Shown: positions 35,767-60,737, counted from the stretch's first letter. The stretch: DNA of 64,000 bases from Clostridia bacterium (GCA_045655005.1 JAZOOJ010000019.1:102335-166334), one strand, 5' to 3'. Made by a program: numbers and translations. Notes: generated by a model from the sequence alone, not told the origin.

Positions 35767-37764
35767 TTAGCCGTTTAGGACTTTGCGATTACGCTCTTTA
35801 ATGTCGTAATAAACTTCTTGCTCGTTAAGTCTTCGTCCTGGGATATACGGCATATCCATTTGACCAATTTTGTAGATATCTGGGCATTTCCAATATTGCG
35901 TCATCGTTGAATTTATTGGATAGTTACCAAAAATTTTAACAATGATGTTACCTTCTTTTAGTTTGTCAAGGTCAGAAGGGAATAGAAGTGGACGGCTTTG
36001 AAGTGATGTTGATGTGCTTGCACCTCCGCCTCCATCTTTTTTATCGCCTTCAGATTTTGATTTACTTGATACTTTAACGTGGTAGTTACCAAGTTCTTTA
36101 CTGAATGTTTCACGGGTTTCTTGCGATGGGGTACCAAGGAAAAGTTTTGAGTTACAGTTATCCATAACGATTGATGCAGTTGCTTTACCGTAAACGTTTT
36201 CAAGCTGAGCATAACTTTGAATAATCATATTTAAGAAAATTTTTCTTGAACGTGCGACTGTAATAATTTTGTCAAGGTTTGCAACTGGTGGCATATTCGC
36301 AAACTCATCCATGATATAGAATACTGGGCGTTTAAGGGATGCGTTTCTTGCTTTTGATTTATCTTTGCTTATTACTTCATTATCTCTTGCTTTTTTAACG
36401 AATGCTTTATAACTTTGAGTAATACATACGGTGGCTAAGCCATAACGAGTTTGTCTTTCATCAGGAATTTTAATGAAGAATGCTGTTGGTCCATCGTCAA
36501 AAGTAGCAAAGTCAATTTCATTTCCTGCCGTTAAATAGCAGATGCCATTGTCGGCAAATAATGAAAGTTTTTGGGCTAGGGTAGACATATATGAGTCACG
36601 AGTTTGCTTAGCATTTGAATAAACGATGTGAGAACATAATTGAACGGTTTTTGAAAGAGGGCTTCTTCCAGCGAAATAATCTTTTGCGTCTTCGAAATCG
36701 TTTTCTTTGTTCATCGCTATCTTATACATATTATAGAAATTGAACCTTTCTTTTGTCATTCCAAGTTGTGGGTTTTCGCTGTCTTCAAGCATTGCAATCA
36801 ATACAGCAAGCATATAATCTCTGGCACCTTGCTCCCAGCTTGCATTCTTTGGGTCGGTTGTTGGGCAAAGGGCAGAAGAAATGTCATTTAATTCTTCAAT
36901 ACATTCGTCACGAATTTTGGTTTTTTCAACTTCAACTTCTAAGAATGCGTCACGAAGTGAAGCAAAAGCCTTTCCGTCAAATTCGTACCATTCTTCGTTT
37001 TTAATATCGCCAACTTTAATTAAATCATATTGCTTAATATCATCATTAGTATGCTTTAATATTTCTTCTTCCATATGTAATGCACGTTGATAGTTTTCAA
37101 AAACTGGTTCAAGCGGATTCCAGCGGAGTGAGTTGTAAGGGTTCATTAAGTCTAATACCAAAACACGATAGCCATTTTTCTTTAACTTTTCACTGTGGTG
37201 AGCGAAAAGTTCACCTTTTGGGTCGGTTATGAATAGAGATGGGTGGTTTTTAAGTTCGGAAATGATTTGAATGTTTGGTTCAACAAAACAAGTACCTTTA
37301 CCAACACCAGTGGTACCAACAATAAGTGCGTGGTAGTTTGGTGTGAAGTGAATTCGCATATCGCCTTTTTTATAAATAGACCTAAATGCAATTCCTTCGT
37401 GCGAAACGTTTTTAAGCTCTGACCAAAGATAATTTTTGTAGGCTTTGTCAAGGTCTTTGCCTTCAAGCCAATGAACATTTTCAAGGTCTTTTTCGCCTTT
37501 AAATCCATCGTCGCTCTTTTTCTTATCAGAAGTGAAGAATATAAGTAGAAAAATAAATGCAACGCCAACAACCAAAATGAAAAGGTTGTTTACCTCTTCG
37601 TCCCCAATATATTCAAGGATTGACGAAACTTCACCACCGCCAATACTTCTGTCAAATAAAAACATTTGAAGCAAGATTGCAATAATGTAGCAAGTTGGAA
37701 TGCCAATTGCTAAAACAATCAAAAGCTTGATAAAGGTGCTACTTAAATCTTTTTTTTCTGCCAT
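35767..37764 (-). CDS. Type IV secretion coupling protein (TraG/TraD/VirD4 family ATPase)
   Basis: Two N-terminal TM helices. Walker A VGTTGVGKGT followed by FITDPKGELF. Walker B FYIMDEFANM. 665 aa with a single ATPase domain. Confidence 0.85.
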   Translation of the reverse strand: MAEKKDLSSTFIKLLIVLAIGIPTCYIIAILLQMFLFDRSIGGGEVSSILEYIGDEEVNNLFILVVGVAFIFLLIFFTSDKKKSDDGFKGEKDLENVHWLEGKDLDKAYKNYLWSELKNVSHEGIAFRSIYKKGDMRIHFTPNYHALIVGTTGVGKGTCFVEPNIQIISELKNHPSLFITDPKGELFAHHSEKLKKNGYRVLVLDLMNPYNSLRWNPLEPVFENYQRALHMEEEILKHTNDDIKQYDLIKVGDIKNEEWYEFDGKAFASLRDAFLEVEVEKTKIRDECIEELNDISSALCPTTDPKNASWEQGARDYMLAVLIAMLEDSENPQLGMTKERFNFYNMYKIAMNKENDFEDAKDYFAGRSPLSKTVQLCSHIVYSNAKQTRDSYMSTLAQKLSLFADNGICYLTAGNEIDFATFDDGPTAFFIKIPDERQTRYGLATVCITQSYKAFVKKARDNEVISKDKSKARNASLKRPVFYIMDEFANMPPVANLDKIITVARSRKIFLNMIIQSYAQLENVYGKATASIVMDNCNSKLFLGTPSQETRETFSKELGNYHVKVSSKSKSEGDKKDGGGGASTSTSLQSRPLLFPSDLDKLKEGNIIVKIFGNYPINSTMTQYWKCPDIYKIGQMDMPYIPGRRLNEQEVYYDIKERNRKVLNG

Positions 37765-37989
37765 ATTCTTTTAATTCCTTTGTTGTTGTTATGAATTAAT
37801 AATCAAAAAGAGTGATCAAATGTAAAAAGTTATATTATTAGTTTCATTATATCAGATATAATTTATACCGCAAATGATATTTTGACTTTTTTTTTAAAGT
37901 TATGCAACAAATTTTAAAAAATAGTCAAATTTATTAGACATCGAATAAAAAGTTTGCTAAACTTAAAACTATACTAAAAGGGAAGAAAT

Positions 37990-38328
37990 GTGAAAATGAA
38001 GAGTTTGTTTTGTAATTTATTTAATCCGAATTTTTTAATAATGGCGTCGCAGGCGGTTGATAAAGATTATAACTCGTCGGTAAGTCCATTGTATGAGTTT
38101 ATCGATGTTTGGGGACCATTTTTAATTGGAATGATAACAGGTCTTTGTGTTATCTATTCAGTAGTTTTGATGGTTCAATATGTAAAAGCGGAAGATGCGA
38201 GTGCAAGAGATGCTCAAAAGAAGAAAGTTGTCAACGCAATCATAAGTATGGTCGTTGTAATTGTGCTTTTAGTCTTGCTTTATGGGCTTCGTGATACTTT
38301 TGTTGAACTCATGAACGACACAAATTGA
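37990..38328 (+). CDS. Small two-TM hairpin protein, VirB2/TrbC-like candidate (paralog 1)
   Basis: 112 aa. TM1 - charged loop (YVKAEDASARDAQKKKVVNAI) - TM2. The loop is alignable with that of the next gene. Start GTG 37990 or ATG 37996. Confidence 0.45.
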   Translation: MKMKSLFCNLFNPNFLIMASQAVDKDYNSSVSPLYEFIDVWGPFLIGMITGLCVIYSVVLMVQYVKAEDASARDAQKKKVVNAIISMVVVIVLLVLLYGLRDTFVELMNDTN

Positions 38329-38419: not shown

Positions 38420-38776
38420 ATGAGATTTCTAACTAACTTAGTTATGAACGCTAAAAGATTGTTGGCTGACGGATCTTCATTTATGGATTCAAGCGAAGGT
38501 GCTGGTGTTAAGAATTTTACAGACACAATGAAAAACACTTTCACAGATGTTATGAAGATTGTTATGCCTATCGTGTTTGGTGTTGTAACCGCTATGGGTG
38601 TTTTCTTTGCAGTTAAACTTGGTATTGGCTATGCTCAAACCGAAACAACTGAAAAGAGAGAAGAAGCTAAGAAGCGTCTTATTGGTGCTATTGTAGGTTT
38701 CGGTATCGGAATCGTTGCTGCTGCATTAATGTGGTGGTTGTTTACGAGCGGAATTGTAGAAGACCTATTCAAGTAA
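38420..38776 (+). CDS. Small two-TM hairpin protein, VirB2/TrbC-like candidate (paralog 2)
   Basis: Very strong RBS AAGGAGGAAG. 118 aa. TM1 - loop (YAQTETTEKREEAKKRLIGAI) - TM2, the topology of TrbC/VirB2-type subunits. Confidence 0.45.
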   Translation: MRFLTNLVMNAKRLLADGSSFMDSSEGAGVKNFTDTMKNTFTDVMKIVMPIVFGVVTAMGVFFAVKLGIGYAQTETTEKREEAKKRLIGAIVGFGIGIVAAALMWWLFTSGIVEDLFK

Positions 38777-38879: not shown

Positions 38880-38909
38880 GCACAAATTTTTCGTTTGTGC
38901 CTTTTTTAT
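38880..38909 (+). terminator. Terminator closing the two-gene mini-protein operon
   Basis: Stem gcacaaa / tttgtgc followed by cTTTTTTaTTT. A weaker hairpin plus T-run lies at about 38795-38845. Confidence 0.6.
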
Positions 38910-39069: not shown

Positions 39070-42000
39070 TTGATGTACAGTAGTTTTATGATGAAATTAA
39101 TGAATATTTTACCAATGGTAGCCAATAATGGTGCAGGACGTGCAAATGGTAGTGGCGGAAGTGGAAACTTTGCCGGTGGGTTTGCAAATGTTTTGGCTTG
39201 GCTTGGTAATTTATTGGTTGATATTGTAACAACAGTTTGGGGTTGGATAATCTCACTTTTGTACGGGGTTGTAAAACTTGTACTGAATGTTATGGATATT
39301 CTTCAATTCTTCGTAAATAAACTTGTAGGTATTGATATTTATAACAATCCAGACTGGTCGGACTTAGTAACTTTACAAGAAAGCGATTTGATTGTTAAAC
39401 TTATTACAAGCCCAACAGTGTTAAGGCTTTTTAGAGCGGTTTTAATTCTGGCTGGTGTGTTGCTTATAATCTTTTGCATTATCGCAATTGTAAAATCAAA
39501 CTTCAATTCCGCCATTGGTGCAGAAGAAGAAAAAGAAGGGCATGCTCAAAAGGTTTTGAAAAGAGCAGTTAAATCGATATTCTTCTGCTTCTTAACCCCA
39601 TTTTTATTGATTGTTGGTATTCTTGGTTCAAATGTAATTCTTGCAAGTATATGCAATGCAATCAATGGTGACAATAATTTATCTTTGGGCGGTATAATTT
39701 TTACAACATCAGCCTATGACGCAAACAAATATAGAGTTTATGCGAAGAATAGTCAGCGTGTTCCAATGTATTATAGTAACGCAACAAGAATTATCAATAT
39801 GGGTGATTATCGTGAAGATGCAGATATGAGAAACTTGTTCTACTATATGGCAAAAGGCGAAGTCTATATGGAAGGAATCACCGAGGCAACGATTGCAAAG
39901 CGTGAGGCAGGTGAGTATAACGATTGGTATTCAGACATAATCACGATGGATAAAAATAGTTATATGTATAACCCGGTTCCAGTTAGGGGTATTACAAACG
40001 GAATTGCCGGATCTAGTGACAGCGACAATGTTTCAATTAGTGGTAACAAGTTAGCTTTCTCAATCGGAAATGTCTTTGATGAAGATGCTGTTGGAATGAG
40101 TACTGTTGCAGCTGCATTTGAAAGCGATTTCCAAGAATGGTATTCAGAATATTTCCAAAGCACACCTTTAAACGATTTTGGCGTAAGCAGTGATATAAAT
40201 AAAAAAATCCACGGATTTGGCAACTCTGCTTCAAACTGGAATTGGAATTGGCAAATTGATACAATGTCTATGGACTTCTCATCAACATACTATGTTTCGG
40301 CAGACAATCTTTACTTTAACAGCACAGGTGCTTATGTTGATATACTTGATAATACAGAAGCTTATTCACAGTATGAAACATTTGCAACAACTCCTCTTGA
40401 ATATTATGTTATGGCAGATGTATTAGATTTTGCTATTGAATATAATTTAGAATTGTTTTATGTAAATGCTGATAATGCATACATTCAATGGGAAAACATT
40501 CCAATCACTGATGACGAAGAAGATAATGTTGATGTTTCAACTTATTGCAGAGAATATGTGATATTTAGATATTATGAGGACGGAAATCCAAAATATTATA
40601 CCTATTACGGGACGGTTGATGAAGCTGTAACGGCAGGTGTAATAGACAGGCAGATTGTAAGGGAAAATATTACTTATACATTAAAATCAAATAATCACGA
40701 ATTAGATCTTTTATCTACCGATGCATTCTATGTTAGTTATTATGACGGAACAAACAGACTTTATTGGTCAGAAGATGGCGAAACTCGTGAACGTGACGGC
40801 TCAACTTATATCGTTTGTTACAAGAACTCAGACACGGGATATTTTGTTCCAATTACACAAGAAACAACAAAATTTAAATCAGACTTTTTAACCGAAGAAT
40901 ATGACGGGCCAGTTGTTGCAAGAGGTATTTTTGCAAAAACATCGGTTATACCACAAGCGACTCCTCAACCAACAGCGATTCGTGAGCAATTTGTTGATGA
41001 AAATGGGAATGAGGTTGCAATAGTTGAAAACAATGATGCATTAAGTTTGAAGGTTGTAAATTACACACAAGGCAATCCTATTTCAAATCAAACACTTTCC
41101 AATTTTATAGGTCATATCGATGATGAAGGCAATGGGATTAAAGGGAATTTAAGTGTTGAAGATGGCAATACGACTAATAATGGCATTTTAAATAATTCGC
41201 TTAACTATTTGTATATTGGTGAAGGAATTTTTCCAAATTTATACATAAATAGCAATGTCAAAAATTATAAAATATTTGAAGCAGACTCAGCAAAATATGT
41301 ATCTTTCTATGACAGTAATGGTTATGTAATGCCTTATGGCGGAGAACCGGTCGAGCAAGCAGATGGAAGTATGGCAACAAATGTTGAAACAGCTATGGAG
41401 ATAATTCCTGACGAATCTAACGAAAATGTATTTTTATACTACATTTATGGAAAAGGCGGGGCTTATCAGCCAATTGTAAGTTATAAAAGTCCAAATGCTA
41501 ATGATATTGATGAATTGCTTGAGGATTATAAGAAGTCTATTAATAATGTTGACGATATTATATTACTTGACGAATTGATAATTATTCAATATAAAGCACA
41601 GTTGTTGACATTTAAACCAAAGGGTGGAGAGGATAGCGAAAAACTTTCGATGCTTGTAGGAGCACAAGCGGTTGGTATTTCACAAAATGGTAGTCCGTTT
41701 AAAAAGGATGGAAATTTTGAACTTGCTTATACTTATGGCTCAGGCATTGCACAACAACAAAAAGCCGCAGAGCGTGATCCAGATAACCCAGAGGGCGAGC
41801 CTGGTGAACAATATGTTGTAGTAAATCGTTATGCAAACAATGCTGATGCTGGCGGATATATGATTGACTATGTTGAATCTCATACAAATTTTGATGTGGA
41901 TATGCATGGTTCAAAAATTGTAAATCTTTTCATAAAAAATGGTTCGGTTTATTATGCAAATGGAAGTAATAGATTTTTAAATCTTGATGATAACATCAAA

Positions 42001-45000
42001 AATTATTACAACTATGCATTAGATTTTGAACCAATAAGTACTGAAATGGTTGCAAATATTTTCTATGAGGTTGTTAAAGAGGAAAGTTCAATTGGTGGTC
42101 TTGGTGGTTATTACAAGAGCAAATTTGAAGAACTTGTGTTAAGTGTTGATGGACAAAATCCTCAGGCTAGAGTAGCCGCGGATACATTAACTCCTCAAGG
42201 CTGGTATACTTATTTCACAGGAGCTGGAAGTGGAATTCTTGACGAAGCCAAGTCGGCGGTTTATGCAATGCTTTACGGACAAGAGTTTTTGATTGGTATG
42301 GCATCGTCAATTCAACCTTTACAAGCTAAATTCTTTGGATATGTTCAAGATAAAACTAATTTAGATAATGTTGTACTTTCATTTTACGATAACAACAACA
42401 GAGAAACAGCAAGTGCAGTTCAAGAGAACGTGAAGATTTCTGAAATCAATAGTCCTTACGATGCTGACACAAAATGCGGCGCAAGAAGTGCAATTGTTGA
42501 AATTCCAATTACTGTTGTTTTGAAAAATGATGCTAGTGCCAATGTTGAAGCTGTGTTTGTTAATTCAACATCAGCAAATGGATACAGCGCAGATTTTACG
42601 ACATATACATATACCTTATCATTTACTGTTAATTACATTCAATGTGCAGGTTATGCTTTTGGTGGTGCAATCTCAAACATTCAATTAATTGCACCAGAAC
42701 TAATTGGAAACAATATATTTATTCAAATCAAAAATGGTTCGGTATACTGCCCAAGTTTAAGAAGCTATGTTCTTGGACTTGACGGAATGAAAGAAATTGC
42801 TAATACAGTATTAGCAAATAACGAAGTGTGGAGCCAAGATGTAATTAACTCACAATATCTTTTTGATTTAACAACCATTTCTAATTACAGCAATGTGTAT
42901 ATTTATTTTGAAAGAGGCGAAATTTTATTTGATTTGCCGATTGATGCAACTCTTCATATGAAAGGTGCTAATCTTTTCACCGACATCGTATTTAGATTTG
43001 CAATTGATTTTGTAAGAACTTATAATGTAAATGTTATATATAGGCTTGAAGGCGGAAGTTGTTTATTAAATTACAACTTTAATAAAAACACAGCGATTGA
43101 AATTGGAAACTTATACGAAATGAGATTTATTAATCCAATTATATTGTTGTTCTCAACAGCCATTGTCTTTGGAATGTTGTGGAATATGGTTTGGAACTTG
43201 ATAACAAGAATATATGAAATAGGAATCAGATTTATTATTTTACCAGCAGTGTTGTCTGTTGACGTGCTGTCTGATGGTAAATTTAAAGCATGGAAAGATG
43301 CGGTCGTTGAAAAAGTACTGTCAGCGTATTCGGTACTCATAATGCTGAATTTATACTTTGCGTTGATTCCATCTATTGGTGAAATCACTGAGGGACTTAT
43401 TTCTTGGGATGAACTTCCAACCACATTTACTGGACTATTTAGCGCAATAGGTATAAATAAAGGTGGTGCAATGATTTCAAATATTGGTGCAAATCTTGGT
43501 GGATTTGCTAGTGGTATTATAACAAGTTTGATTGCAGAACTTAAAGAAACTACAATCATTACAGTTACTGGTTGGCTTAATAAGTTAATATTTATGATGT
43601 TTTTCTTAGTATTGACCACACTTGTTAAACAAGGTCCAAAGATTCTTGGTAAGTTTATTGGAACAGATGCAGATATCGCAGACGAAAGTACAAAGAATAA
43701 AGTAGGCGAAATAAAGAAAAAGGCTGCGGAAGTAGGAGAAACTGGCGGAAAAATTATAAAAGGCGGTACAAATCTTGCTACTGGCGTTGGTAAAAAGTTG
43801 TTCAGCGGTGCAAGTAATTTGTTGCTTTCGCGTTATATGAGCATTTTACCAGTTAATATGCAAAATATTGGTGAATATAAATTTTCGGGCGATACGGGTG
43901 ATTTACGAGGAAGTTCTTTTGCAAGTGGTTCGCCAATGACTACAAGGACAACGTCCATTCGTGGAAGCAGATATGGTGCAGGTGGTCGTGCTATTGTACC
44001 GGATACTGGTGTTAGTGGTGGTTCAACAGACGAAGAAACAAGAGAAACAACAACTTCAACCCGTGGTGGAGGTGCTATGGATATGGCACATATGGATTCT
44101 GTTGTTGAAACCGATACTCCAATCGAAAGAGGTGGCGGTGGTTCATCGGTTGTCTATGTTTCAGCGGGTGGCGATGCTGGCGCTGGCGGAAGTTATGACG
44201 AAATTGAAGAACCAATTAAGATTGAAGACAATTTAAGTTCTGTTCAATTGCTTGAAAGGTCTGAAAACTTAATGAATGAAGCTATGGATAAACGCGGTCA
44301 AGCAGATGCGTTGCGTGAAATGGCAAAAGATAAATTTACAAAAACTGATGAAACAGAAATGTATAATTATGAAATAGAGCTTAAGATGACGGAAGAGAAA
44401 CTTGCTAGGGCTCAACAACGTCGTGGAGAAGCTTATGACTTGAAACGTGGTGCACAAGCTAGGGGTGAAAGAACTGACCAAGTTGAAGTTGTTGATGAAA
44501 AGGGCAACAAAAAGATTGTTAACGCTCAACAAGACTGGCAAGATGCAACTGATGAAGTTCATTCTATTCAAGCTGAAATCGAAGCACTTAAGTCTGTTAT
44601 TCACGAATACGAGGCTAAGAAGCAAGCACAAGCTGACTTCTTATCTGAAGCTGAAAGACTTGAAAATGATGCTAAGGTAGACGACCAACACGCTGCTGAA
44701 TACTTTGAAGCCGCACAAGATAAAGAATTACTTGAAGCTGCAATCACTAAAGAAGAATTTGAAAAATACAAGAGTGAAGCAGCTGCTCAATTTGCACAAA
44801 AAGGTGACATTGATCAGTACGGAGCTAAATTTGACGAAAAACTTGCAACAAAAGCCGATGATGAAGTATTGGAAGCTGTTTGGGATTATGTTGATGAGTT
44901 AGAGGGCTCTATTGAACAAGAACTTGGAACAACGCTTCAAAGTGCGTACGAGGCTGTTGATACTAAGGCTGATGCAGACCTTACACAAAAGGCTCTTGAC

Positions 45001-47873: not shown

Positions 47874-47934
47874 GCTGGAAAAGGTATAAAAATATAAGTG
47901 GCGACTTTAAACGCATTTGAACAAGGAGAAAATT

Positions 47935-50890: not shown

Positions 50891-53800
50891 ATGCAAATGA
50901 TGGTAACATTTATGAAAAATATCATTGGAGTAGGTGCACAAAAAATTGGTGCATCTACTCTTCACGCCCTTCATTTGCAGAATGTTTTGCCTGTTCTAGC
51001 ATCTACTAGTGCTGAGGGAACGGTTGATGTTGGTGGATTGTTAAGTCCAATAACATCGCTTATTGAAGGTGTTTGGGGATTAATTATTTCGTGGTTTTAC
51101 TTTATTTCTAAATTTGTTTTCCAAATAGTAGATTTAATTCAATATTTGCTTTATAAACTCGCTGGAATTAATTTATCGTCAGAAATGACATTTGACCTAC
51201 CAATTTACAGAGTTTTACTTTCTGAAACAATATTAAAGATATTTATTTCGTTGTTTGTTATTGGATTAATATTGCTAATTGCACTCACAATAATTTCTAT
51301 TGTAAAGTCAGAGTACTCTATTGCTGTCGGTCTTGAAACCGATCCTAAAAAAGTCAAAGGTGCTTCAAGTAAGGTCGTAAAATCTACACTTACAGCATCG
51401 ATTTTGATGTTTGTTGTTCCATTCTTAGTTATTGTCTCATTGGCGTTTGGATCGGTCTTTTTGACAAGTATTAATTCGCTTTTAAACCCAAACGGCACAA
51501 GTGGTACAACTCTTGGTGGGCAGGTGTTTGTTGCGTCTGCACAGAAAGCAAACAAGTATAGAATTTACGCAGACAACAATCAAAGAATTCCTATTCTTTA
51601 TAATTTTTATGACCCAATGACAAATGGCACTGCTCAAAACTATACCGAAGAAGAACTTGAAAGGGAATATGCAGATTGGGCGAATGGAAGTAAATATTAT
51701 TCAGACCAAAGGTCAAAAAATTACAATAGTTTCAGCAGTACTTTGGTATATAAAAATAATAGACTTTATAATAAAGCAGACACATTCGGCGATTATGAAC
51801 AATGGGTGTCGACACCTGAGCAATATTATATAATGGCTGATTTTATTGATTATGCCGTTAAAAATAATCTTGAATTTTATATCAAAGACTCATCAGACAA
51901 CAATATTGATTGGACAAATATGTCAAGCGAAATAAAGCTATCTGATGGTGTTTATGACCCAGCAACGGGAACCTTTAAACTTTCTTATAAAGATATCTCC
52001 AATGTTAATAAGTATGAAGATGTTTATAATATGGTTTTAGATGCTAATGAATTTATAGCATCAAGCCCTATTGCAGATACAACAAAGACTATTGCTGAAC
52101 TTTTGTCTATTGCGCTAAATGAAGAAGATATAGAAGATACAAAATCAAGAATGTTTAGAATGCTTGAAAGGGTGGAAGGTAGTACCAACATTGTAAAATG
52201 GAAAACCGAGTATATAGCTTATGGACAAGACACCTTTTCAATTTACCAATTAACAAAAAGATATTTTAATCCTTTAACTGGACGAGTTGAAGCACGTGCA
52301 ACGGTACCGGTGGCAAGAAAGCAATCGGCTGGATCATATTACATTTTAAAACAAAATGGAAATGGGAATTATGAATATACCAATCAAGTTATTGAATATA
52401 ACAATGATGGGAAGTTGTACCGTGACCAATTGGAACCGGTTTATGTTTATGGTAATTGGCCTGAAAAACTTTATAACGATTTAAAAGTTATTTACGATGA
52501 TATAAATATTGATAACTATATTAATTACGACAATTGGGCAGATATGCTTGGTGAGTATTATACAGTTGGTGAAAACATCTCATCTGACCAAGTTGTAACT
52601 TTTGCAACTACTTTAATTCATCCTCTTGGACTGATTATGTCAGAATTGTTTTTGGGTGTGACTTTTGAATCGGATAATCAAATAACAGATATTTCGTTCA
52701 CTTCGCAATATTTGGAAGAAACAATACAAGCATTATGTTTTGCTGTTGGCGGTGAGGAAAAATATTGGCAATTAAAATGCGAAATTGAATCATTTGTTGA
52801 TATGTTCAATGGGTTGTTTACTCCAATTGTTGAGGAATTGCAAAAAATTGAAGGTTTTGACCTTTATGATGAAGACGAATATTCAGTTCAAGGATACGTT
52901 TATAAAGCATATCTTGCAAGCATTATGCTTTCAGATAGTGCTAATGATTATTTTGAAACATTGGGCTATGAAATCTTAAACCTTAACAACCTTGCTGCGG
53001 TGATTTATAACAATACTACAAATTATGTTTACGATTCAAATGGCGATATAGTATATAAAGTGGTTTATAGCACCGATGAAGATGGGAATAAAATTCAAAA
53101 AACTTACACATCAACCAAAGAAAATGGTTTTGGTAATGTTACAGGTAAATATGTTTACAACCAAAGTGGGGAGTTGGTTGTAGTATGTGATAATAAAGGT
53201 GTTGCAAGCGAAACTTCTCAATATGTTCCGATGGGCGGTATATTTAAAGATAACGTCAAGTTTGACGAAGAAAATGGAATTTATAGAATTAAATATGACA
53301 AGAAATTTTATTCTTATGACGAATATAATCAATATTTAATAAAAGAGAAAGAGAAGCATCCAGATGCTAATCACCCAGCTTGGGAAGCACTTTTCTATTC
53401 TTATTTTCAAACGTACTATGAATTCAAGTATGACCACGAAAAAACTTTTGATGCAAAAGTGGAAGATGAAATAAAAACATATTCAGTTGTTTGTAATGGA
53501 CTTGGACAAATTGTTTTTGAGTATAGAAATGGAGTGTTTTATCCTGTTGACGAAGATTTATGTACTGATGATGGAATATACTTTATTCCTAAAGATAGTT
53601 CAAATATTGTTGTAGATGGTGTTAATGGTTTAAGCTATAAAGAAGCGGTGATAGATGGCGACAATAAGCGTTATGTTGATATTGCGGTAACCCAAAAGGT
53701 AACAAATAAAGATGGATCGGTATCAATAGTAGTTGATGAACGTTTCGAGAGAGCAAAAATTAGGCTAAATGTATATGACCATTTAATAGGCACTAATCCT

Positions 53801-56800
53801 AATTCAAAAATAGGGTTAACTGAAGCAGAACAGATTATTCTTTCGGTAGATGATGATAAGCAAGATGATATTGTTTATGATTTTGCATTGGACTATTCTT
53901 TGAAAAAGCAAAGTCCTAGCGATTATATGGTGGTTAATAATTCGTTAATCATTAATTCTCAATTGAATATCATAGCGCAAGATTTTTATCAATATGAGAA
54001 AAAATATTCTCCAATGGAACAATATGATTATGCTATTTATCAAAACTTACCAGAAAACAGCAAGAAAATTTTAGATGATGCAATTGCTTATATGCATAAG
54101 ATTGCAGAAAAAGACCCTAATCAAAAAAATCAAACATTTTTACCATATCTTGAAAGTTATCAACAAGGGTTTATAGCGTGTGGTTCGGGCAATGAGTTTA
54201 TAATTCAAATGGAATATATTTTCTCTGCTCCTATGGTGTCTGCTTTAATTGCTGAAAATTATAAAAGTGAACTAAGTGAAAATATTGAATATTTACAAAA
54301 AAACGCTAATAAATCTACAAAGATTAAATATCAAAAGAAATTTGAGGCTGTTTGTAGTTACTACAAGTACAAAATCATTAAATCAATTCAAGAATATATG
54401 TCTTATCGGATTTCAAGCGGATATAATGTAGTTGTTAATAGTCAGCAATTTACATTACATCAAGCGATGTCATCAACACAGTTTATGGAAATTGTGTTTG
54501 GTAATCAGTTGACTTATGAATCGCTTATTGGACAACTTGAAGTTGGTTCGTTATATAACGATTTAACAAAGTTTAATCAAGGCGCAATGTTTTTACTTTC
54601 AAGTTATATTCGTCAAGACCTTTCTGAACTTAATCAAATTATTGAAAAATTAAAATTATACAGATTTTTAAATGGTGCAATTTACAACATTTTAGCATAT
54701 CAAGTTGATTTTAATTTAACTGCTCGTGAACTTGAAATAATTAATACATTCTATGAAGTTCAAACAGGTGATGCCTTAAATGTGAATTCTAAAATGATGT
54801 TTAATTATTTAAAACTTGCAACAATGAATGAGCTTGGAAAGCCTGCGTCATATAATTCATTGATGTATGACTCAATATTGGCTGAACTTAGCAAAGTTGC
54901 TGATAATCTTGGATATATTTTAGATGAATTTATGGCTGGCTCGTCAGATATTCACTCAACTGCTGGTGATATTACTAATCTTGACGCAACAAGAATGCTT
55001 GCAAGATATATAAAGAATATTAAAAGTGATATTGAATTGTCATACGTTGACCCAGATTATACTGGTATTATTGACCCATCTGGACTTTGGGGTGAACTTA
55101 GACAATTTTTGAAAGATTTTGGACGCTTGTGTTTTGACCTTGAAACTAAATCAAATTTTGGCTCGTTAACTGTTGGTAAAAGCGACTCGGAAACAATTGT
55201 TGGTGCAACTTCAAGTTATGTGAATGAGCTTCTTGATATGCTTAACGGTATGCTTGCAGAAGTTGATTTTGGAAGCACAGGAACATCAATTACTAAAATT
55301 AATAACTTTAGTGATTTAATTGCAGAGTACTTCAATGAAGAAAATGAACAATTTGAATATCGACCAGTTGATGGCGAAACTAAATATGAGAACCTAACAA
55401 GCGAAGCAAAATATTATATTGCAATACTTTGTGATTATTTTGAGAAGGCAACTGCTGAATATAACTCTATAATCAACAATGCAAAAGATGCTTATAATAT
55501 GGTTGTGAAGTTTAAAACTGGCAGATATACAATTCAACCGAATTCGTTAATCTTCACCAAATATTTAAAAGAATACATTGAATACTTTAAATATAATGTA
55601 GATTCATCGGATACAAGTCTTCAAAATGATTTTGCAAAGAATTATATCTTTGACGGATATTATTTAGAGGTCAATCCAGATTTAGAGTTTGGCAACGCCG
55701 GATTAAGTATGGCGGATAGGCTTAATTATTACTTCAAATATATTGAGTCATTTGATAATTTTCAATTCGCAAACAGTGGTAATTATTATTCAGATTTGAC
55801 GGATTTGCAACAAAAGGTCGTTGATGATTGTGTTAAATACTATCTAGCGATATATGAAGATGCACAGGATCAATTAGAAGAAAAGTTTGCAGTTGCGAAT
55901 GAAAGTTTTGCAAAGCTAACGCTTTTCATATTTGGCGATGAGCATGGAAATTTTTCGACCATTAGCGAATCAGGTGTTGACTTGATAATTGCGAACAATA
56001 TTGACATTTTAAATCTTTATAATGTACTTGATTTTATGGGACTTGAATTTGATATAAATAAAAATCTTAGAGATTACAGAATTGATGCTATAAATAGTTT
56101 AGTTGATTTCCGTGAATATAGCGGTGAAAGTTCGGCGTCTATTCAAAGTAGATTCCTATCTCTTTTATATCTTGCTTGCTCAGATTATACCGAAAATAAT
56201 ATTGGTACTTCATATATCGGATATGATGATAACTCTAAACAGATTATTTTAACTCTTGCTGGGATTCAAGACCAAGCAGATGAAAAACTTGTAAATCTTG
56301 AATATGAAGGGAATTATTCAAATTCGGTTGCTGATGAAAAGTATGGAAGTATATTTATTATTTGTACATATAACGCAGAAACAGAGTTATACGAACCATT
56401 TATCTTTGCGTCTGCTCCAAATAAACACAATATTCCATATTCAAATTATTATCAATCAATTAATGGTCAAGTTACATATTATCCAATTATTGCAAAAGGT
56501 ATTTTTGATAGAAATGGAAATCCTACAGCAATAAGAGAGGTTAATGGGTATATTGAATTTTATCGTGATGAAGTGTACAGATTTTCTTTCAACAAAATGG
56601 CGATGGACATCTATGCTGTGGCAGAAGAAGAAATTGCCGAGAACCACGGAATTGTTGGGAATATTGTAAGTACAATTAAGCAGACAATAAGTAGATTTTT
56701 AATAGCAGATACAGTTTCAGATATGATTTCATACATTGATGTTGACTTAGCACCTGAAACATATTGTGGAACATTTACCAAGTATGAATATCACTTAGAA

Positions 56801-57823
56801 GGTGGTTATTGCAATCTTAACTATATGTTCTTTAATTCTACCGGTATCGACGTTAAACATTTGTATGATATATCCCAACTTAATATAATTATTCTTGTTA
56901 TTGCTTCGGTGGTAATTCTTAAAGCTATGTGGAATATCTTGTATGGCGTCGTGGGTTCAATCTATCAAATTGGAATATTGTTTGCAATTTCTCCAACTGT
57001 AATTGGAATCTATCCAATGAAGAGCGATGCATTCAAAAGTTGGGTCAAAGCCTTTGTTAAACAATTCTTTATAATGTATGGCTATATCGTAGCATTAAAT
57101 TCTTACTTTATTATATTGTCACTAATAGACCAAATGGGGCCATTGATTGACAAATTGTCGCCTGGAAGTGAAAGAATTTTACAAGATACATTTATCTTTA
57201 ATGGTATTGATTTGTTCTCAATTGTATCATTCTTAATTACAACAACATTACTTTTAACTGCTACAACAATGCTTAGCACTATGAGTGAAGAGTTCTCAAT
57301 CAATCTGTTTGGTGGAGATAATGCAGAATCGGCTGGTTCTAAGGCTAAAAAGCAAATGGAATCTAACCTTAATGAAGCAGAGTACTTTACAAGTGGTTAT
57401 ATGTTAAAAGATAGCGTTGCAAATGAGCTTCAACAAGGTGTTAAAACTTGGGCACCATTACTCCCAGATATTTCTAATTATGTACAAGACAAGTATCATA
57501 ATAAGCACAATGAAAAGCTTGCAGAGAAATATAAAAACGACTTGCTTGCACAAGGTGTTAGTGCTACGAAGGCAGAAGAAGCTAAGAATGCTTATAAGGC
57601 TACACTTGAAGCAAGACAAAAAGCTAAGAAAGATCACATTAAAGCAGAAGAACAAAGAAGAGAGAATAGGCAAGCGTCACTTAAATCTGGCGGTGAGACT
57701 TGGGCTTCAAAGAAGAAAGACGACAAAGTTTCTTGTGATCAATGTGGAGCAAAATTCCCTAAGAGTTATGTCAAAGGGGCTACTCATTGTCCAATCTGCA
57801 GACGAAAAGCTAAGTTTAAATAA
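50891..57823 (+). CDS. Giant polytopic membrane protein (2310 aa), paralog 2, with a ~1800-aa extracytoplasmic loop and C-terminal zinc ribbon
   Basis: Three N-terminal TMs, conserved blocks ANKYRIYADNNQRIPILY, YYIMADFIDYAVKNN, AKGIFDRNGNPTAIRE, a TM bundle at nt ~56880-57285, and a tail ending CDQC-x14-CPIC. Confidence 0.6.
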   Translation: MQMMVTFMKNIIGVGAQKIGASTLHALHLQNVLPVLASTSAEGTVDVGGLLSPITSLIEGVWGLIISWFYFISKFVFQIVDLIQYLLYKLAGINLSSEMTFDLPIYRVLLSETILKIFISLFVIGLILLIALTIISIVKSEYSIAVGLETDPKKVKGASSKVVKSTLTASILMFVVPFLVIVSLAFGSVFLTSINSLLNPNGTSGTTLGGQVFVASAQKANKYRIYADNNQRIPILYNFYDPMTNGTAQNYTEEELEREYADWANGSKYYSDQRSKNYNSFSSTLVYKNNRLYNKADTFGDYEQWVSTPEQYYIMADFIDYAVKNNLEFYIKDSSDNNIDWTNMSSEIKLSDGVYDPATGTFKLSYKDISNVNKYEDVYNMVLDANEFIASSPIADTTKTIAELLSIALNEEDIEDTKSRMFRMLERVEGSTNIVKWKTEYIAYGQDTFSIYQLTKRYFNPLTGRVEARATVPVARKQSAGSYYILKQNGNGNYEYTNQVIEYNNDGKLYRDQLEPVYVYGNWPEKLYNDLKVIYDDINIDNYINYDNWADMLGEYYTVGENISSDQVVTFATTLIHPLGLIMSELFLGVTFESDNQITDISFTSQYLEETIQALCFAVGGEEKYWQLKCEIESFVDMFNGLFTPIVEELQKIEGFDLYDEDEYSVQGYVYKAYLASIMLSDSANDYFETLGYEILNLNNLAAVIYNNTTNYVYDSNGDIVYKVVYSTDEDGNKIQKTYTSTKENGFGNVTGKYVYNQSGELVVVCDNKGVASETSQYVPMGGIFKDNVKFDEENGIYRIKYDKKFYSYDEYNQYLIKEKEKHPDANHPAWEALFYSYFQTYYEFKYDHEKTFDAKVEDEIKTYSVVCNGLGQIVFEYRNGVFYPVDEDLCTDDGIYFIPKDSSNIVVDGVNGLSYKEAVIDGDNKRYVDIAVTQKVTNKDGSVSIVVDERFERAKIRLNVYDHLIGTNPNSKIGLTEAEQIILSVDDDKQDDIVYDFALDYSLKKQSPSDYMVVNNSLIINSQLNIIAQDFYQYEKKYSPMEQYDYAIYQNLPENSKKILDDAIAYMHKIAEKDPNQKNQTFLPYLESYQQGFIACGSGNEFIIQMEYIFSAPMVSALIAENYKSELSENIEYLQKNANKSTKIKYQKKFEAVCSYYKYKIIKSIQEYMSYRISSGYNVVVNSQQFTLHQAMSSTQFMEIVFGNQLTYESLIGQLEVGSLYNDLTKFNQGAMFLLSSYIRQDLSELNQIIEKLKLYRFLNGAIYNILAYQVDFNLTARELEIINTFYEVQTGDALNVNSKMMFNYLKLATMNELGKPASYNSLMYDSILAELSKVADNLGYILDEFMAGSSDIHSTAGDITNLDATRMLARYIKNIKSDIELSYVDPDYTGIIDPSGLWGELRQFLKDFGRLCFDLETKSNFGSLTVGKSDSETIVGATSSYVNELLDMLNGMLAEVDFGSTGTSITKINNFSDLIAEYFNEENEQFEYRPVDGETKYENLTSEAKYYIAILCDYFEKATAEYNSIINNAKDAYNMVVKFKTGRYTIQPNSLIFTKYLKEYIEYFKYNVDSSDTSLQNDFAKNYIFDGYYLEVNPDLEFGNAGLSMADRLNYYFKYIESFDNFQFANSGNYYSDLTDLQQKVVDDCVKYYLAIYEDAQDQLEEKFAVANESFAKLTLFIFGDEHGNFSTISESGVDLIIANNIDILNLYNVLDFMGLEFDINKNLRDYRIDAINSLVDFREYSGESSASIQSRFLSLLYLACSDYTENNIGTSYIGYDDNSKQIILTLAGIQDQADEKLVNLEYEGNYSNSVADEKYGSIFIICTYNAETELYEPFIFASAPNKHNIPYSNYYQSINGQVTYYPIIAKGIFDRNGNPTAIREVNGYIEFYRDEVYRFSFNKMAMDIYAVAEEEIAENHGIVGNIVSTIKQTISRFLIADTVSDMISYIDVDLAPETYCGTFTKYEYHLEGGYCNLNYMFFNSTGIDVKHLYDISQLNIIILVIASVVILKAMWNILYGVVGSIYQIGILFAISPTVIGIYPMKSDAFKSWVKAFVKQFFIMYGYIVALNSYFIILSLIDQMGPLIDKLSPGSERILQDTFIFNGIDLFSIVSFLITTTLLLTATTMLSTMSEEFSINLFGGDNAESAGSKAKKQMESNLNEAEYFTSGYMLKDSVANELQQGVKTWAPLLPDISNYVQDKYHNKHNEKLAEKYKNDLLAQGVSATKAEEAKNAYKATLEARQKAKKDHIKAEEQRRENRQASLKSGGETWASKKKDDKVSCDQCGAKFPKSYVKGATHCPICRRKAKFK

Positions 57824-57853: not shown

Positions 57854-60703
57854 ATGAAATTGATAAGTTTTATGAACAACTTAATATTTAAATTCAACAG
57901 CCAGCACTTGCTTAAAAATGGTGCTGGCAAGGCTCACAGCGACTTGTTTAGTTTATCGAGCGAGAGTGTTGGATTTTTTCAAACAATTTTGAATTCTATT
58001 GCTGATACTTTTGCTGATGTTACAAATTTTTTACTTAGAATACTTTACAGACTTGTTTATTTTATCGTAATGCTTGCTTTGAACATTATGGACTTTTTAA
58101 TGGTTATTGTAACAGAGCTTTCGGGTAAAGCACAATCTTTTGACCTTTCAACGGCGAATTCGAATCTTGAAAGTTCAGATATAATTTTTAAATTCTTCTT
58201 TAATTCGCTTACGATGAAGATTTTAAAAAGAGTATTTATTTACTCAATACTTTTACTTATCATCATTTCAATTATTGCAATTGTCAAAAATGAATGGGCA
58301 AGGGCTACTGACGAAAAAGCAAGAGATGCAAAGCAGATTATTGTAAAAAGTTTGAAAAGTTTATTTATGATGTTTGTAATTCCATTTTTCTGTATCGTCG
58401 GAATTGTCTTTTCTAATGTACTACTGACCTCTGCATTGAATGCAATAAGTGGGGATAGAGATAATTTCAGTGTTGGCTCGATTATTTTTATGTCGGGGAC
58501 ATACAATGCAAACTGGTATCGGGTGTATGCAGATAATAATGATAAAATCCCAATATTGTTTGATTTTAATGGTGGATTTTATAACGCCGACAATGGGACG
58601 GCAGATAATGGAAATTATTTTGATGTAGAAGACGAGATTAATGCATTAAAAAACAATAGTTACCTAACAAGTGGATATAGTACCTATTCAATGTTTCAAA
58701 AGCAGGCGTATTTTACATTTAATGAAGTTCCTGAAAATAGTTCTTATTATGCGTTCTATGATGGCGACTTTATTAAAACTAATCGAATAGAGTATTATGT
58801 AATGGCGGACTTTGTTGACTATGCTATGGAAACCGGACAAGAGTATTATATAAAGAATGTCGAAGATGTTTATAACACGGCCTATGATGCAGTTGTTGCA
58901 TCAGAAAGAGCGGGGGCTTGTTTGTATCCATATATTGCAGAAGGCGAAGAATCTCCTGATGATCCATACTATAAATATTTTGAAGAAATCTTTAATAACA
59001 TTTCGGTTTATAGTGATGAAGTTGATGATGATGGCAAGAATGTACAACTTCCAGTATATAGCGCGGGAGAAGATGGTCAAATAGGTTTAAATTACGACCG
59101 AAAAGATTCTGAGTATTTCTCCTTTAAAGTTTATTATGATGGTACACTTTTAAATGCTTGCGGTGATGTCGAGGTTGAAAGCGAAGAAGTCGCAGTAGAT
59201 GGGGAAATCAAAGAAGTTTATAAAGATAAGGCAATTGAATATCAAGCACTTTCGGGTGCAGATGACGAAGCTTATGGTGCTAAATATGTTTATTGTTATA
59301 AAGTTTCGGTTCCAATAAGCGAGGACGGAAGCCAAAAGACTACTATTTATGTGCCTATCTTGCAACATTCAAGCAATAATACATTCTTTAATTTTGAAAG
59401 TGAGTATTTGGCAGATGTCACAATTGGTCGACCTTATGAATCAATGTTTTTGGCAAGAGGGGCGTTTAATGTATCGGGCTATCCAACAGCGATAAAAGAG
59501 GCCGGTTCAGACATTGTGTTTTATCGTCACGATGCCGAACAAAAAAGTTATTTTAAGGTAAAACCGCAGTCAAGTTATACCGAAACTGATGATAATGGAA
59601 ATGAAACGGTAATTGAGGCTGAGGGAGACTTCTTTTCAAAGGTTCTTGGGTTTGACCAATCAAAGGTTCAAATGGGGCTTGACATAAAAGGTAAGTCAAT
59701 GCCAGTATTTTCAAAGTCTGTTTTAAATATAACAACATTAAACAAAGGTCAATTTAAACTTAATTACAGTTTTGTGAATACACGACTTACTCTTGGAAAT
59801 GTTTATGATTTATTGAATATTAACTTTGTAATTTTGGCAATTGCTTGTTTGCAATTAATGAGTACATTGTTCTATATCATATTTGCACTAATGCGAAGGC
59901 TTCTTGAACTGACGGTATTTTGGTTTACCTATCCTGCGTGGCTGGTTAAATTTCCACTTGAATCAACAGATAGTGTGCTGGAAACCAATGGTATGTGGAG
60001 AGCAAACTTTATTGACAGAGTGCTTGCAGTTTATACAACTTATATCGGTTTAGCGTTTTTCTTCACATTGGTGCCAATTGTGGTGGAAATAGACTTTGCC
60101 GGCTCGATTATTAATTCGATTAACTCAAGCAATTTGTATTGGTTTAACTATTTGCCACCGACTTTGATTTCTTGGGTTATCAGAACGATGTTTATCTTAG
60201 TGTTATTTACTATGATGTCAAGCATTAATCAAATCATTGATGATTTTGCAAGTGGCGGAAGGCTTTCAGGATTTGGTGCTGATCAAGGTAAAGAAGTATT
60301 TAAAAATATTAAAGGGAATGTTAAAGGAGGGTTTGAAACATTTAGCATTAGGGCTAATCTAAAGAATGCAAAGGAAACAATTAAAAACACGGCTCACGAT
60401 GCGACAATGTTTATTCCTGGTGTTGGATTCTTAGATACAGGTGTCACTGCTGTCAGAAATAAGGTGAACGATGTTCAAGCGAAGCGTGCTATTGACGCAC
60501 TTGTTTCTTCTGACCATACAAGAGGTGCAACTGATGCAAGCGTTACAACAGACATTGATTCGATGAAGAGAGTTATGGATGGATATGATGTGACTAGTCG
60601 AGGTAAAACAACACACGTTGACGGCTTTAAAGATAAATCTAAAAAGATTGAAGAAAGTGCAGATAAGCGTGGAAGACTTCATATCAAACCTCCAAAGAAA
60701 TAA
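57854..60703 (+). CDS. Polytopic membrane protein (949 aa), paralog 3, near-minimal core of the giant family
   Basis: Same N-terminal three-TM module. Blocks ANWYRVYADNNDKIPILF, YYVMADFVDYAMETGQEYYIK, ARGAFNVSGYPTAIKE. TM bundle at nt ~59815-60225 and a short basic tail. Confidence 0.6.
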   Translation: MKLISFMNNLIFKFNSQHLLKNGAGKAHSDLFSLSSESVGFFQTILNSIADTFADVTNFLLRILYRLVYFIVMLALNIMDFLMVIVTELSGKAQSFDLSTANSNLESSDIIFKFFFNSLTMKILKRVFIYSILLLIIISIIAIVKNEWARATDEKARDAKQIIVKSLKSLFMMFVIPFFCIVGIVFSNVLLTSALNAISGDRDNFSVGSIIFMSGTYNANWYRVYADNNDKIPILFDFNGGFYNADNGTADNGNYFDVEDEINALKNNSYLTSGYSTYSMFQKQAYFTFNEVPENSSYYAFYDGDFIKTNRIEYYVMADFVDYAMETGQEYYIKNVEDVYNTAYDAVVASERAGACLYPYIAEGEESPDDPYYKYFEEIFNNISVYSDEVDDDGKNVQLPVYSAGEDGQIGLNYDRKDSEYFSFKVYYDGTLLNACGDVEVESEEVAVDGEIKEVYKDKAIEYQALSGADDEAYGAKYVYCYKVSVPISEDGSQKTTIYVPILQHSSNNTFFNFESEYLADVTIGRPYESMFLARGAFNVSGYPTAIKEAGSDIVFYRHDAEQKSYFKVKPQSSYTETDDNGNETVIEAEGDFFSKVLGFDQSKVQMGLDIKGKSMPVFSKSVLNITTLNKGQFKLNYSFVNTRLTLGNVYDLLNINFVILAIACLQLMSTLFYIIFALMRRLLELTVFWFTYPAWLVKFPLESTDSVLETNGMWRANFIDRVLAVYTTYIGLAFFFTLVPIVVEIDFAGSIINSINSSNLYWFNYLPPTLISWVIRTMFILVLFTMMSSINQIIDDFASGGRLSGFGADQGKEVFKNIKGNVKGGFETFSIRANLKNAKETIKNTAHDATMFIPGVGFLDTGVTAVRNKVNDVQAKRAIDALVSSDHTRGATDASVTTDIDSMKRVMDGYDVTSRGKTTHVDGFKDKSKKIEESADKRGRLHIKPPKK

Positions 60704-60707
60704 CAAA

Positions 60708-60737
60708 AGAGCAGATATTTTATCTGCTCTTTCATTA
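60708..60737 (+). terminator. Terminator closing the T4SS-like operon
   Basis: Perfect stem agagcagata / tatctgctct right after the stop at 60703, followed by a T-rich stretch. Confidence 0.6.

Follow-up and report, generated by a model that had tools for sequence, protein, structure and literature searches.

The archaeal Ced/Ted systems, conjugation machineries domesticated on the chromosome, consist of a VirB2-like pilin, a VirB6-like channel and a VirB4-like ATPase and import DNA in cellular DNA exchange; their authors knew of no other conjugation apparatus domesticated for DNA transfer (PMC9905601). In bacteria, the relaxase-less type IV secretion systems (T4SSs) of the Patescibacteria (candidate phyla radiation, CPR) are essential for epibiotic growth and were judged to be non-conjugative (PMC12102498, PMC12857230), and the rvh system of the Rickettsiales contains tandem VirB6 paralogs with huge hydrophilic extensions, the Anaplasma VirB6-4 protein reaching up to 4322 aa (PMC7648143, PMC2653234). 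The integrative and conjugative elements (ICEs) of the Mollicutes (MICEs) share a backbone of CDS5, CDS17, CDS19 and CDS22 together with CDS1, CDS14 and CDS16; the DDE recombinase CDS22 is needed, insertion shows no preferential site, and the lipoprotein CDS14 is required for mating (PMC6030558). VirB2-type pilins are absent from Gram-positive T4SSs, with the Patescibacteria as the sole exception (PMC12857230). Here, a T4SS locus is described that lies in a 64,000-nucleotide stretch of a Clostridia bacterium genome (GCA_045655005.1 JAZOOJ010000019.1:102335-166334, hereafter the window) and that is, with high confidence, a vertically inherited, host-retained (domesticated) T4SS of a monoderm bacterium. 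Searches of the accessible literature for such a T4SS in the Christensenellales or the Clostridia found no description.

The locus covers positions 32435-60732 of the window and all of its eight genes are intact. The minus strand encodes a surface protein of 966 aa (S966, 32435-35335) and a VirD4/TraG-type coupling ATPase of 665 aa (35767-37764). Divergent from these, the plus strand encodes two pilin-like proteins of 112 aa (pil1, 37990-38328) and 118 aa (pil2, 38420-38776), an extended VirB6-like protein of 2914 aa (39070-47814), a VirB4 ATPase of 972 aa (47917-50835) and two further extended VirB6-like proteins of 2310 aa (50891-57823) and 949 aa (57854-60703). The plus-strand operon ends at a terminator with a 12-pair stem (60706-60732, plus strand), which a preliminary description of the window had placed at 60708. 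All of the open reading frames (ORFs) listed in that description are present, but the start of the locus was moved from 35767 to 32435, as the 966-aa gene downstream of virD4 is syntenic in relatives. The component list was thereby kept and extended by three points that had been missed: the affinity to Mollicutes ICEs, the pilin identity of two hairpin proteins and the adhesin-like 966-aa gene. The window has a G+C content of ~33% and the overall look of an ordinary Firmicute chromosome; the G+C content of the locus equals that of its flanks except in the tail-coding region of the 2914-aa protein. The flanking core genes noted previously (gpr, rpsT and holA on one side, fba on the other) were found again, with comEC added to the left flank (comEC, holA, rpsT, gpr) and a MerR-like and a GNAT gene to the right (MerR-like, GNAT, fba).

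Comparison with known systems

Judged by sequence, the nearest named relatives of the locus are the Mollicutes ICE families (Mbov_0395/0396/0397, MMCAP2_0565/0566). These families gave the best matches for VirB4 (full length), for the VirB6-like transmembrane (TM) domain and for the pilin-like proteins, and the best VirB4 relatives in the plasmid database belong to Spiroplasma and Mycoplasma (24-32% identity). The two systems also share the gene order pilin, TM protein, VirB4 and a surface protein able to make contact, and neither has a recognisable VirB1 or VirB8 (for the MICEs, PMC12857230). Unlike a MICE, this locus occupies a fixed site in a walled, spore-forming host, and its VirB6-like gene is triplicated and enormously extended. 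Homologs of CDS5 (VirD4) and CDS17 (VirB4) and a CDS16-like protein are present, but a DDE recombinase was not found and VirB4 scores under the family cutoff, so that the locus does not qualify as a MICE. None of the DDE recombinase CDS22, CDS1, CDS30 and the ParA-like CDSG was found at the locus, and no other Mollicutes-ICE family of NCBIfam was found among the scanned proteins.

A chromosomal cluster in Mesomycoplasma hyorhinis (NZ_LR214949.1, 12045-20454; L089) contains an Mbov_0395 pilin-like protein, an Mbov_0396 TM protein, an Mbov_0397 VirB4 and Mbov_0399. It is located between dprA and genes for an HAD hydrolase, a 5'-3' exonuclease and DNA polymerase III alpha, with no VirD4 or transposase annotated nearby, and may be the vestige of an ICE or a second case of a module kept on the chromosome.

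In function and architecture, the closest counterparts are the Patescibacteria T4SS, the archaeal Ced/Ted systems and the Rickettsiales rvh system. The Patescibacteria systems are likewise monoderm, chromosomal, of the MPF-FATA type, mostly relaxase-less and equipped with PF18895 pilins (PMC12102498), and their interpretation as co-opted for host biology is given in PMC12102498 and, as cited in PMC12857230, by Wang et al. 2023. They differ from this locus in retaining genes of the VirB1, VirB3 and VirB8 kinds and about six pilins, in not having a giant VirB6 in triplicate, and in their hosts, which are ultrasmall epibionts. The Ced/Ted systems resemble the locus in being relaxase-free conjugation machinery domesticated on the chromosome (PMC9905601) but are archaeal and without VirD4. 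The only CedD match among the locus proteins is weak (9e-5, far below the cutoff), leaving no significant similarity to Ced/Ted, and the DNA-damage regulation and repair-gene linkage of those systems were not seen at this locus. The rvh system is chromosomal and vertically inherited as well and has the tandem, extended VirB6 paralogs (PMC7648143, PMC2653234), but it is a diderm MPF-T system with VirB8-11 and serves as the effector translocator of obligate intracellular bacteria; the VirB6 paralog expansions of rvh and of this locus are convergent and not homologous beyond the VirB6 core. The conjugative T4SSs of Gram-positive bacteria (pCF10 Prg/Pcf, pCW3 Tcp, ICEBs1, the Clostridioides difficile CTn) are linked to the locus by their ATPase families, VirD4 passing the CD1115 model and VirB4 matching CD1110, and by the class D relatives described below, which are true conjugative elements with MobL. 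They differ from the locus in that it has pilin-like genes, is chromosomally fixed and vertically inherited, and contains no detected relaxase, hydrolase or VirB8/TcpC-like protein.

Conservation of the site and of the sequence

Relatives were collected from a scan of one genome per GTDB species, in which 208 genomes contained a VirB4 relative. Of these, 80 were kept and 81 loci were mapped (cited by L numbers where needed); nearly all of the 80 genomes are labelled as uncultured Clostridia or Christensenella-like gut metagenome-assembled genomes. Class A loci are window-like (VirB4 50-86% identical) and carry virD4 on the minus strand, then two pilin genes, a giant gene, virB4, a second giant gene, a paralog of ~800-1200 aa and fba on the minus strand. 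In class B (VirB4 ~45% identical) the order is rpoA, rplQ, virB4, a gene for a soluble protein of ~600 aa and fba (minus), and in class C (VirB4 42% identical) it is comEC, holA, a phosphoesterase gene, a virB6-like gene (~740 aa), virB4, a gene for a soluble protein of 770-1124 aa and fba (minus). Class D (VirB4 40-44% identical) comprises virD4, a gene for an Ig-repeat tail-anchored protein, one pilin gene, a virB6-like gene (450-550 aa), virB4 and many small genes. Class D loci are real conjugative elements, as MobL is present in L078 and ArdC and a primase-polymerase in L070.

The junctions with core genes recur in the relatives. Two loci (L083, L086) show comEC-holA-rpsT-gpr followed by an S966-like gene, virD4, the pilin genes and a giant gene, two others (L084, L085) show virB4, genes for proteins of 2280 aa and 950 aa and then fba-gap, and one (L001) contains the whole module up to fba. 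The adjacency of virB4 to minus-strand fba was found in 21 out of 81 loci, down to 42% VirB4 identity, and comEC-holA is located upstream in five distant loci. The genes for the MerR-family regulator (340 aa) and the GNAT acetyltransferase (221 aa), which lie at 61018-62732 between the T4SS terminator and fba, are present in this genome only; in L001, L084 and L085 fba directly follows the third VirB6 paralog. In the class B loci L036, L040-L042, L045, L051-L058 and L076 an intact virB4 is located between the end of the rpoA-rplQ operon and fba. Its partners there are only the ~600-aa soluble protein of no known family and, in some loci, a protein of ~175 aa, and no VirB6-like, pilin or VirD4 gene was found within 10 kb of virB4. 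The soluble VirB4 partners of classes B and C (f4, f26, f23, f40) were considered as diverged VirB6 proteins or pilins and rejected (hhalign <1%, no Pfam or NCBIfam match).

The locus has diverged together with fba. Pairwise distances of VirB4 and of Fba are correlated among the 19 genomes in which both proteins are complete (Pearson 0.96, Mantel p<=2e-4), and VirB4 is at least as conserved as Fba (71% against 54% identity between the window and L006); the gene order is kept across genomes in which Fba is only ~54% identical. Compared with a relative of ~96% identity, dN/dS amounts to 0.014 for virD4, 0.021 for pil1, 0.041 for virB4 and 0.050 for S966, with 0.040 for the flanking gpr gene. The exception among the locus genes is pil2 (0.59), which is treated below. 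In a neighbor-joining tree of VirB4, classes A, B and C are each recovered with 99-100% bootstrap and B+C with 95%; the shared fba linkage, not the tree, suggests a single ancestral capture and domestication. At the stop-codon frequency of the window (0.064), an ORF of 2914 codons has a chance probability of ~1e-83 and one of 2310 codons of ~1e-66, which excludes chance as the origin of such long frames.

Two observations concern other genes of the window. A BspA-type leucine-rich-repeat surface protein (LRR_5) is encoded at 9739-11442, and members of this family flank virB4 in L037, L040, L049 and L057. The lysyl-tRNA synthetase encoded at 18816-20489 (minus strand) is a class I enzyme (PF01921, 3e-110), the less common of the two types among bacteria.

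Search for mobility genes

The scanned ORFs of the 64 kb gave no domain of a relaxase, integrase, transposase, hydrolase or VirB8 protein and none for replication or partition, as had been claimed before; because about eight of the window's ORFs match nothing in Pfam, this result means, for a relaxase, that none is detectable. A tblastn search of the window with the MobL relaxase of L078 gave nothing (best E 2.7), and no relaxase was found in more than 30 class A loci (tblastn with window proteins and MobL) or in the annotated flanks of relatives. L078, a related mobile element, served as the positive control: its MobL relaxase (7e-29) abuts virD4, showing that the tools detect a relaxase where one exists. 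Searches for an integrase or a DDE recombinase were negative for the window and for the annotated flanks of relatives, and the borders of the locus contain no att-like repeats beyond chance (longest 11 bp, mean of shuffled sequences 11.8). The preliminary description had named a relaxase, an integrase and att repeats as the marks of an ordinary element, and none of them was present in the window or next to the locus in relatives. Of the features that define an ICE (an integrase or DDE recombinase, a relaxase with oriT, att repeats or a variable site) none was found at the locus.

For VirB8-like (PrgL/TcpC) proteins and VirB1-like hydrolases, the locus ORFs gave no Pfam or NCBIfam domain and no sequence or fold match in the PDB. 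Effector-like, toxin or immunity genes were found neither in nor beside the locus, where the flanks are housekeeping genes.

The VirD4 and VirB4 ATPases

As first described, the coupling ATPase carries two TM segments at its N-terminus and contains GTTGVGKGT, DPKGEL and IMDEF, among which are its Walker A and B motifs. It matches T4SS-DNA_transf (6.4e-46) and TraG-D_C (1.6e-32) in Pfam, and its score of 283.5 bits against the NCBIfam model conju_CD1115 lies above the equivalog cutoff of 250, identifying it as the type IV coupling protein (T4CP) of a T4SS. A terminator-like hairpin with a 14-pair stem is located 3' of the gene (35722-35754, minus strand).

VirB4 contains the motifs GKSGSGKSY, DPEKEY and IDEAH and covers positions 3-888 of the 894 positions of the NCBIfam model VirB4_plasma (Mbov_0397; 583.5 bits, 5.9e-175, just under the cutoff of 590). 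It also matches Pfam P-loop_TraG (4.8e-20) and NCBIfam CD1110 (152 bits), and its C-terminal half matches the VirB4 structure PDB 4AG5 (9e-47). The protein is a member of the VirB4 family with intact Walker A and B motifs, and these motifs are invariant in all relatives examined, across all classes. The N-terminal TM hairpin (aa 30-70) is likewise intact in every class. The protein had been described as a PrgI/VirB3-VirB4 fusion; the VirB4 motifs and the TM hairpin were confirmed, but no PrgI or VirB3 profile matched aa 1-140 even at E<=1, and the fusion label is unsupported. The earlier interpretation had been made dependent on the resemblance of the two ATPases to VirD4 and VirB4 profiles, and both match such profiles.

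The extended VirB6-like proteins

The three giant proteins share a common plan in the TM scan: about three long N-terminal TM helices, a central loop, about three C-terminal TM helices and a tail. The loops measure ~1160, ~1800 and ~460 aa and the tails ~1400, ~186 and ~165 aa in the 2914-, 2310- and 949-aa proteins, respectively, the last being a compact version of the plan. In the 2914-aa protein the N-terminal TM block lies at about aa 50-185 and the C-terminal block at aa 1353-1514, followed by an acidic low-complexity tail. The paralogy that had been proposed for the three proteins holds for both blocks: BLASTP against the 2914-aa protein gave 2e-28 (2310 aa) and 3e-29 (949 aa) for the N-terminal block and 2e-22 and 3e-12, respectively, for the C-terminal block. 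The 2914-aa protein matches the NCBIfam families NF045848 (MMCAP2_0566; 94.7 bits, cutoff 90) and NF045889 (Mbov_0396; 64.6 bits), whereas its two paralogs stay below the cutoff of NF045848. All three giant proteins carry this ICE transmembrane domain (MMCAP2_0566/Mbov_0396), which corresponds to VirB6 in monoderm systems, and the VirB6-like domain of a mobile relative also matches the pLS20_p028 conjugation TM family; the locus thus contains the polytopic VirB6-like channel component of a T4SS. A profile of the 949-aa protein matches 1892 clusters at 50% identity, with members of up to 3852 aa.

Orthologs agree in the TM blocks and in those parts of the loops that adjoin the membrane, and differ widely in the mid-loops and tails (13-26 orthologs; 26 for the 2914-aa protein, in which loop and tail are variable). 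Within the locus, conservation is lowest in the tail of the 2914-aa protein (mean identity among orthologs 14%). The DNA coding for this tail (43612-47814) has a raised G+C content (0.40 vs 0.33) and a strong AT skew, both due to the low-complexity composition rich in E, A, G and K, and tandem repeats in this DNA are negligible. The 2310-aa protein ends in a zinc ribbon, CxxC...CxxC (aa 2282-2303, nt 57734-57799), which is shared with L001-L004 and L019, the sub-clade of the window, whereas in most other orthologs the tail is rich in K and R and extremely basic. Both kinds of ending hint that nucleic acids or membranes are bound on the cytoplasmic face. Taken together with the plan of three plus three TM helices, they suggest that the tails are cytoplasmic and the central loops lie outside the membrane, which would support the earlier proposal that the giant proteins form the extracellular part of the machine.

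Searches of the giant proteins for hydrolase, VirB8 or adhesin domains in Pfam and NCBIfam gave VirB6-like TM families only. A Pfam search of 21 orthologs of the 2310-aa protein yielded just one marginal match, to Big_8 in a single member, and ortholog profiles gave nothing significant against PDB sequences. An AlphaFold2 (AF2) model of the 949-aa protein (pLDDT 65.7 overall, 80-94 in the central domain) shows three plus three long TM helices. In a Foldseek search against the PDB this model had no significant match (none at E<=1e-3); weak, suggestive matches were to R388 TrwI/VirB6 only (8rtd_I, probability 0.54). The model also contains a hairpin of two long beta strands of 26 and 25 residues (aa 553-629, 59510-59740) before the C-terminal TM block, predicted with moderate-to-low confidence, which could add to a tube if the protein is oligomeric.

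The pilin-like proteins and the control region

Two hairpin proteins of about 115 aa with their own terminator had been noted; they are pil1 and pil2, followed by a bidirectional hairpin terminator or attenuator at 38880-38900. Pil2 matches the Pfam family T4SS_pilin (PF18895) with 35.9 bits, over the cutoff of 26.6, and is by this profile a VirB2/TrbC-type pilin. Pil1, a two-helix hairpin of the VirB2 type and a clear paralog of pil2, scores below the cutoff (23.2 bits), as it does against NF045849 (Mbov_0395, pilin-like conjugal transfer protein; 31.7 bits). Two hydrophobic helices and a K/R-rich loop are visible in the alignment of the pilins. CedA1 and CedA are reported to be homologous; a corresponding relationship between the pilins and the N-terminal TM block of the giant proteins was rejected (hhalign probability 1%).

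The high dN/dS of pil2 is confined to its ends. In the hairpin core only 2 of 62 residues differ from the ~96%-identical relative (pN/pS 0.15), whereas an N-terminal segment (aa 14-46, nt 38459-38557) is hypervariable (pN/pS 1.06), as are the last ~10 codons. Pil2 is 74% identical to a relative whose neighbouring genes are 95-99% identical, and pil1 is conserved. In known VirB2-type pili the termini make up the outer surface, and the variation in pil2 is therefore the pattern expected of an exposed filament subunit.

The divergent intergenic control region between virD4 and pil1 measures 225 bp (37765-37989). It contains a promoter-like sequence, TTAGACA...TAAACT (37935-37963), upstream of the pilin genes, whose GAC core, together with the bases next to it, does not vary among five relatives.

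The surface protein S966

S966 has a signal-like N-terminal helix and a C-terminal TM anchor (aa 938-956) in the TM scan and no match in Pfam or NCBIfam; it is a candidate adhesin. An S966-like gene is located between gpr and virD4 in L001, L083, L086 and L087 as well. The architecture resembles that of f33, the Ig-repeat tail-anchored protein of mobile relatives, with weak sequence similarity (E 0.008-0.05), and an inversion of the class D segment consisting of virD4 and the adhesin gene would yield the order found in the window, S966 and virD4 both on the minus strand. The AF2 model is poor and mostly beta (pLDDT 47).

A second surface protein of similar design, with a signal-like N-terminus and a C-terminal TM anchor, is encoded elsewhere in the window (1228 aa, 20537-24223, minus strand). 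It is an orphan without a Pfam match and without BLAST similarity to S966.

Function of the locus

We propose that the locus stems from the same lineage of conjugation machinery as the Mollicutes ICEs and related Firmicute conjugative elements. Its relaxase, recombinase and maintenance genes would have been lost, and the remainder would have been inherited vertically, at one chromosomal site, across a deep clade of uncultured gut Clostridia. The membrane-anchored VirB4 and VirD4 may energise a translocon made of the TM blocks of the three VirB6 paralogs. The central loops (~460, 1160 and 1800 aa) would form the wall-spanning part outside the membrane and replace VirB8- and VirB1-like proteins, a role assigned to them because the host makes peptidoglycan (a Mur ligase and Ddl are encoded in the window) and no VirB8 or VirB1 was found. 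The C-terminal tails, acidic over 1400 aa in one protein and basic with a zinc ribbon in another, may be cytoplasmic docking surfaces for the ATPases or the cargo. On this platform the two VirB2-like pilins would polymerise into a short pilus or conduit, with pil2 as its exposed, fast-evolving surface, and the tail-anchored S966 would mediate contact with the partner cell. VirD4 would recruit a cargo that is passed to or from another cell; DNA is the likelier cargo, in which case the locus would serve chromosomal exchange without a dedicated linked relaxase. Taken as a whole, with this working and with DNA as the cargo, the proposal has somewhat less than an even chance of being right.

The preliminary description had taken the locus for a domesticated system and not an ordinary ICE, and the fixed site among core genes, the co-divergence with fba, the purifying selection and the failure to find mobility genes all favour that interpretation. 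A transfer module belonging to an ordinary ICE, or to a mobile element of another kind, with the relaxase and integrase encoded outside the region examined, would account for the existence of related T4SS gene sets on true conjugative elements (class D with MobL, ArdC and primase-polymerase) and for the match of VirD4 to a conjugative T4CP family. This reading is largely refuted and very improbable, given that core genes abut both ends with the same junctions in several relatives, that att-like repeats and any mobility-domain match in the 64 kb are missing, and that VirB4 co-diverges with Fba at a G+C content matching that of the host. A decaying remnant of an integrated element without current function is less probable still and for class A can be regarded as refuted by the selection data: a remnant would be expected to have lost its relaxase and recombinase genes, and classes B and C look reduced, but none of the eight genes is disrupted, not even the ORFs of 2914 and 2310 codons, dN/dS lies at 0.01-0.05 apart from the termini of pil2, the Walker motifs are invariant across classes, and the gene order has outlasted the divergence of Fba. 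A role as a sporulation channel, considered from the adjacency to gpr, was rejected, as gpr does not adjoin the loci of classes B and C and none of the matches was Spo-related.

If the locus is a domesticated T4SS, the identity of its cargo is the question on which the readings part. DNA exchange is tentatively preferred to protein or other cargo, because the T4CP is constrained and of the conjugative type, the tails are basic or carry a zinc ribbon, and precedents exist in Ced/Ted and in chromosomal transfer by mycoplasmas; ICE-dependent chromosomal transfer occurs in the latter, for which a review lists no VirB1 or VirB8 (PMC12857230). The same domesticated T4SS might instead move proteins or other molecules in the delivery of effectors to neighbouring bacteria or to host cells, in interbacterial antagonism or an exchange of nutrients or signals as proposed for the Patescibacteria, a possibility that is rather doubtful but ranks next. 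It draws on the failure to find a relaxase in the locus, the >30 class A loci or the annotated flanks of relatives, on the multiple giant VirB6 paralogs, otherwise a hallmark of the effector-translocating rvh system (PMC7648143), on the epibiotic, relaxase-less Patescibacteria systems with PF18895 pilins and on the hypervariable pil2, which would fit interaction with varied targets. Against this, no effector-like, toxin or immunity genes were seen within or beside the locus, the gene content resembles that of a free-living spore-former and not of an obligate epibiont (a fucosidase, Mur ligase/Ddl and gpr are among the window genes), and protein-translocating T4SSs are barely documented in Gram-positive bacteria (PMC12857230). 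An action on DNA or surfaces without delivery from cell to cell, be it DNA uptake or release as in ComB and the gonococcal genetic island or an adhesion or aggregation pilus, is unlikely. In classes A and C the comEC-holA block immediately precedes the locus, the M. hyorhinis cluster adjoins dprA, and pilins and a surface protein are present, but the order comEC-holA-rpsT-gpr is standard synteny in Firmicutes, which makes the adjacency to comEC probably incidental. To our knowledge, ComB-type uptake systems are without VirD4, yet virD4 is the most constrained gene of the locus.

Several points weigh against the domesticated T4SS with DNA as its cargo. Most known vertically inherited T4SSs translocate proteins, not DNA, and genes for a relaxase or for effectors could lie in another part of the genome; several ORFs of the window match no family. 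VirB8- and VirB1-like proteins, usual in walled Gram-positive bacteria, were not found, which leaves their replacement by the loops a conjecture, and the fold of the central domain of the 949-aa protein has no match in the PDB. The AF2 model of S966 is too poor for the protein to be called an adhesin. Classes B and C have no virD4 or pilin genes near virB4, so that the system may be reduced or dispersed there, and the neighbor-joining tree leaves class D unplaced (bootstrap 15% for A+B+C, 48% for A+D).

Significance

The locus is a host-fixed monoderm T4SS, a known type of machine with an unusual set of components, and apparently serves the host's own ends. A T4SS has turned, in this lineage, into a vertically inherited organelle of the host, with a VirB4 at least as conserved as a glycolytic enzyme. 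The locus would add a second bacterial lineage, one that is common in human and animal guts, with a VirB4 relative in at least 208 species-level genomes. The locus is also a natural experiment in T4SS architecture, combining a triple extended VirB6 with no detectable VirB8 or VirB1 and with one conserved and one hypervariable pilin. A more far-reaching and speculative possibility is that it represents a bacterial counterpart of Ced/Ted across a deep-branching clade of gut Clostridia, captured by the host for relaxase-independent exchange of chromosomal DNA, with a genuine VirB2-type pilus on a walled Gram-positive cell and with the giant extracellular loops of three VirB6 paralogs crossing the wall in place of VirB8 and VirB1. 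If the cargo is DNA, these abundant gut anaerobes would possess a built-in system of gene exchange.

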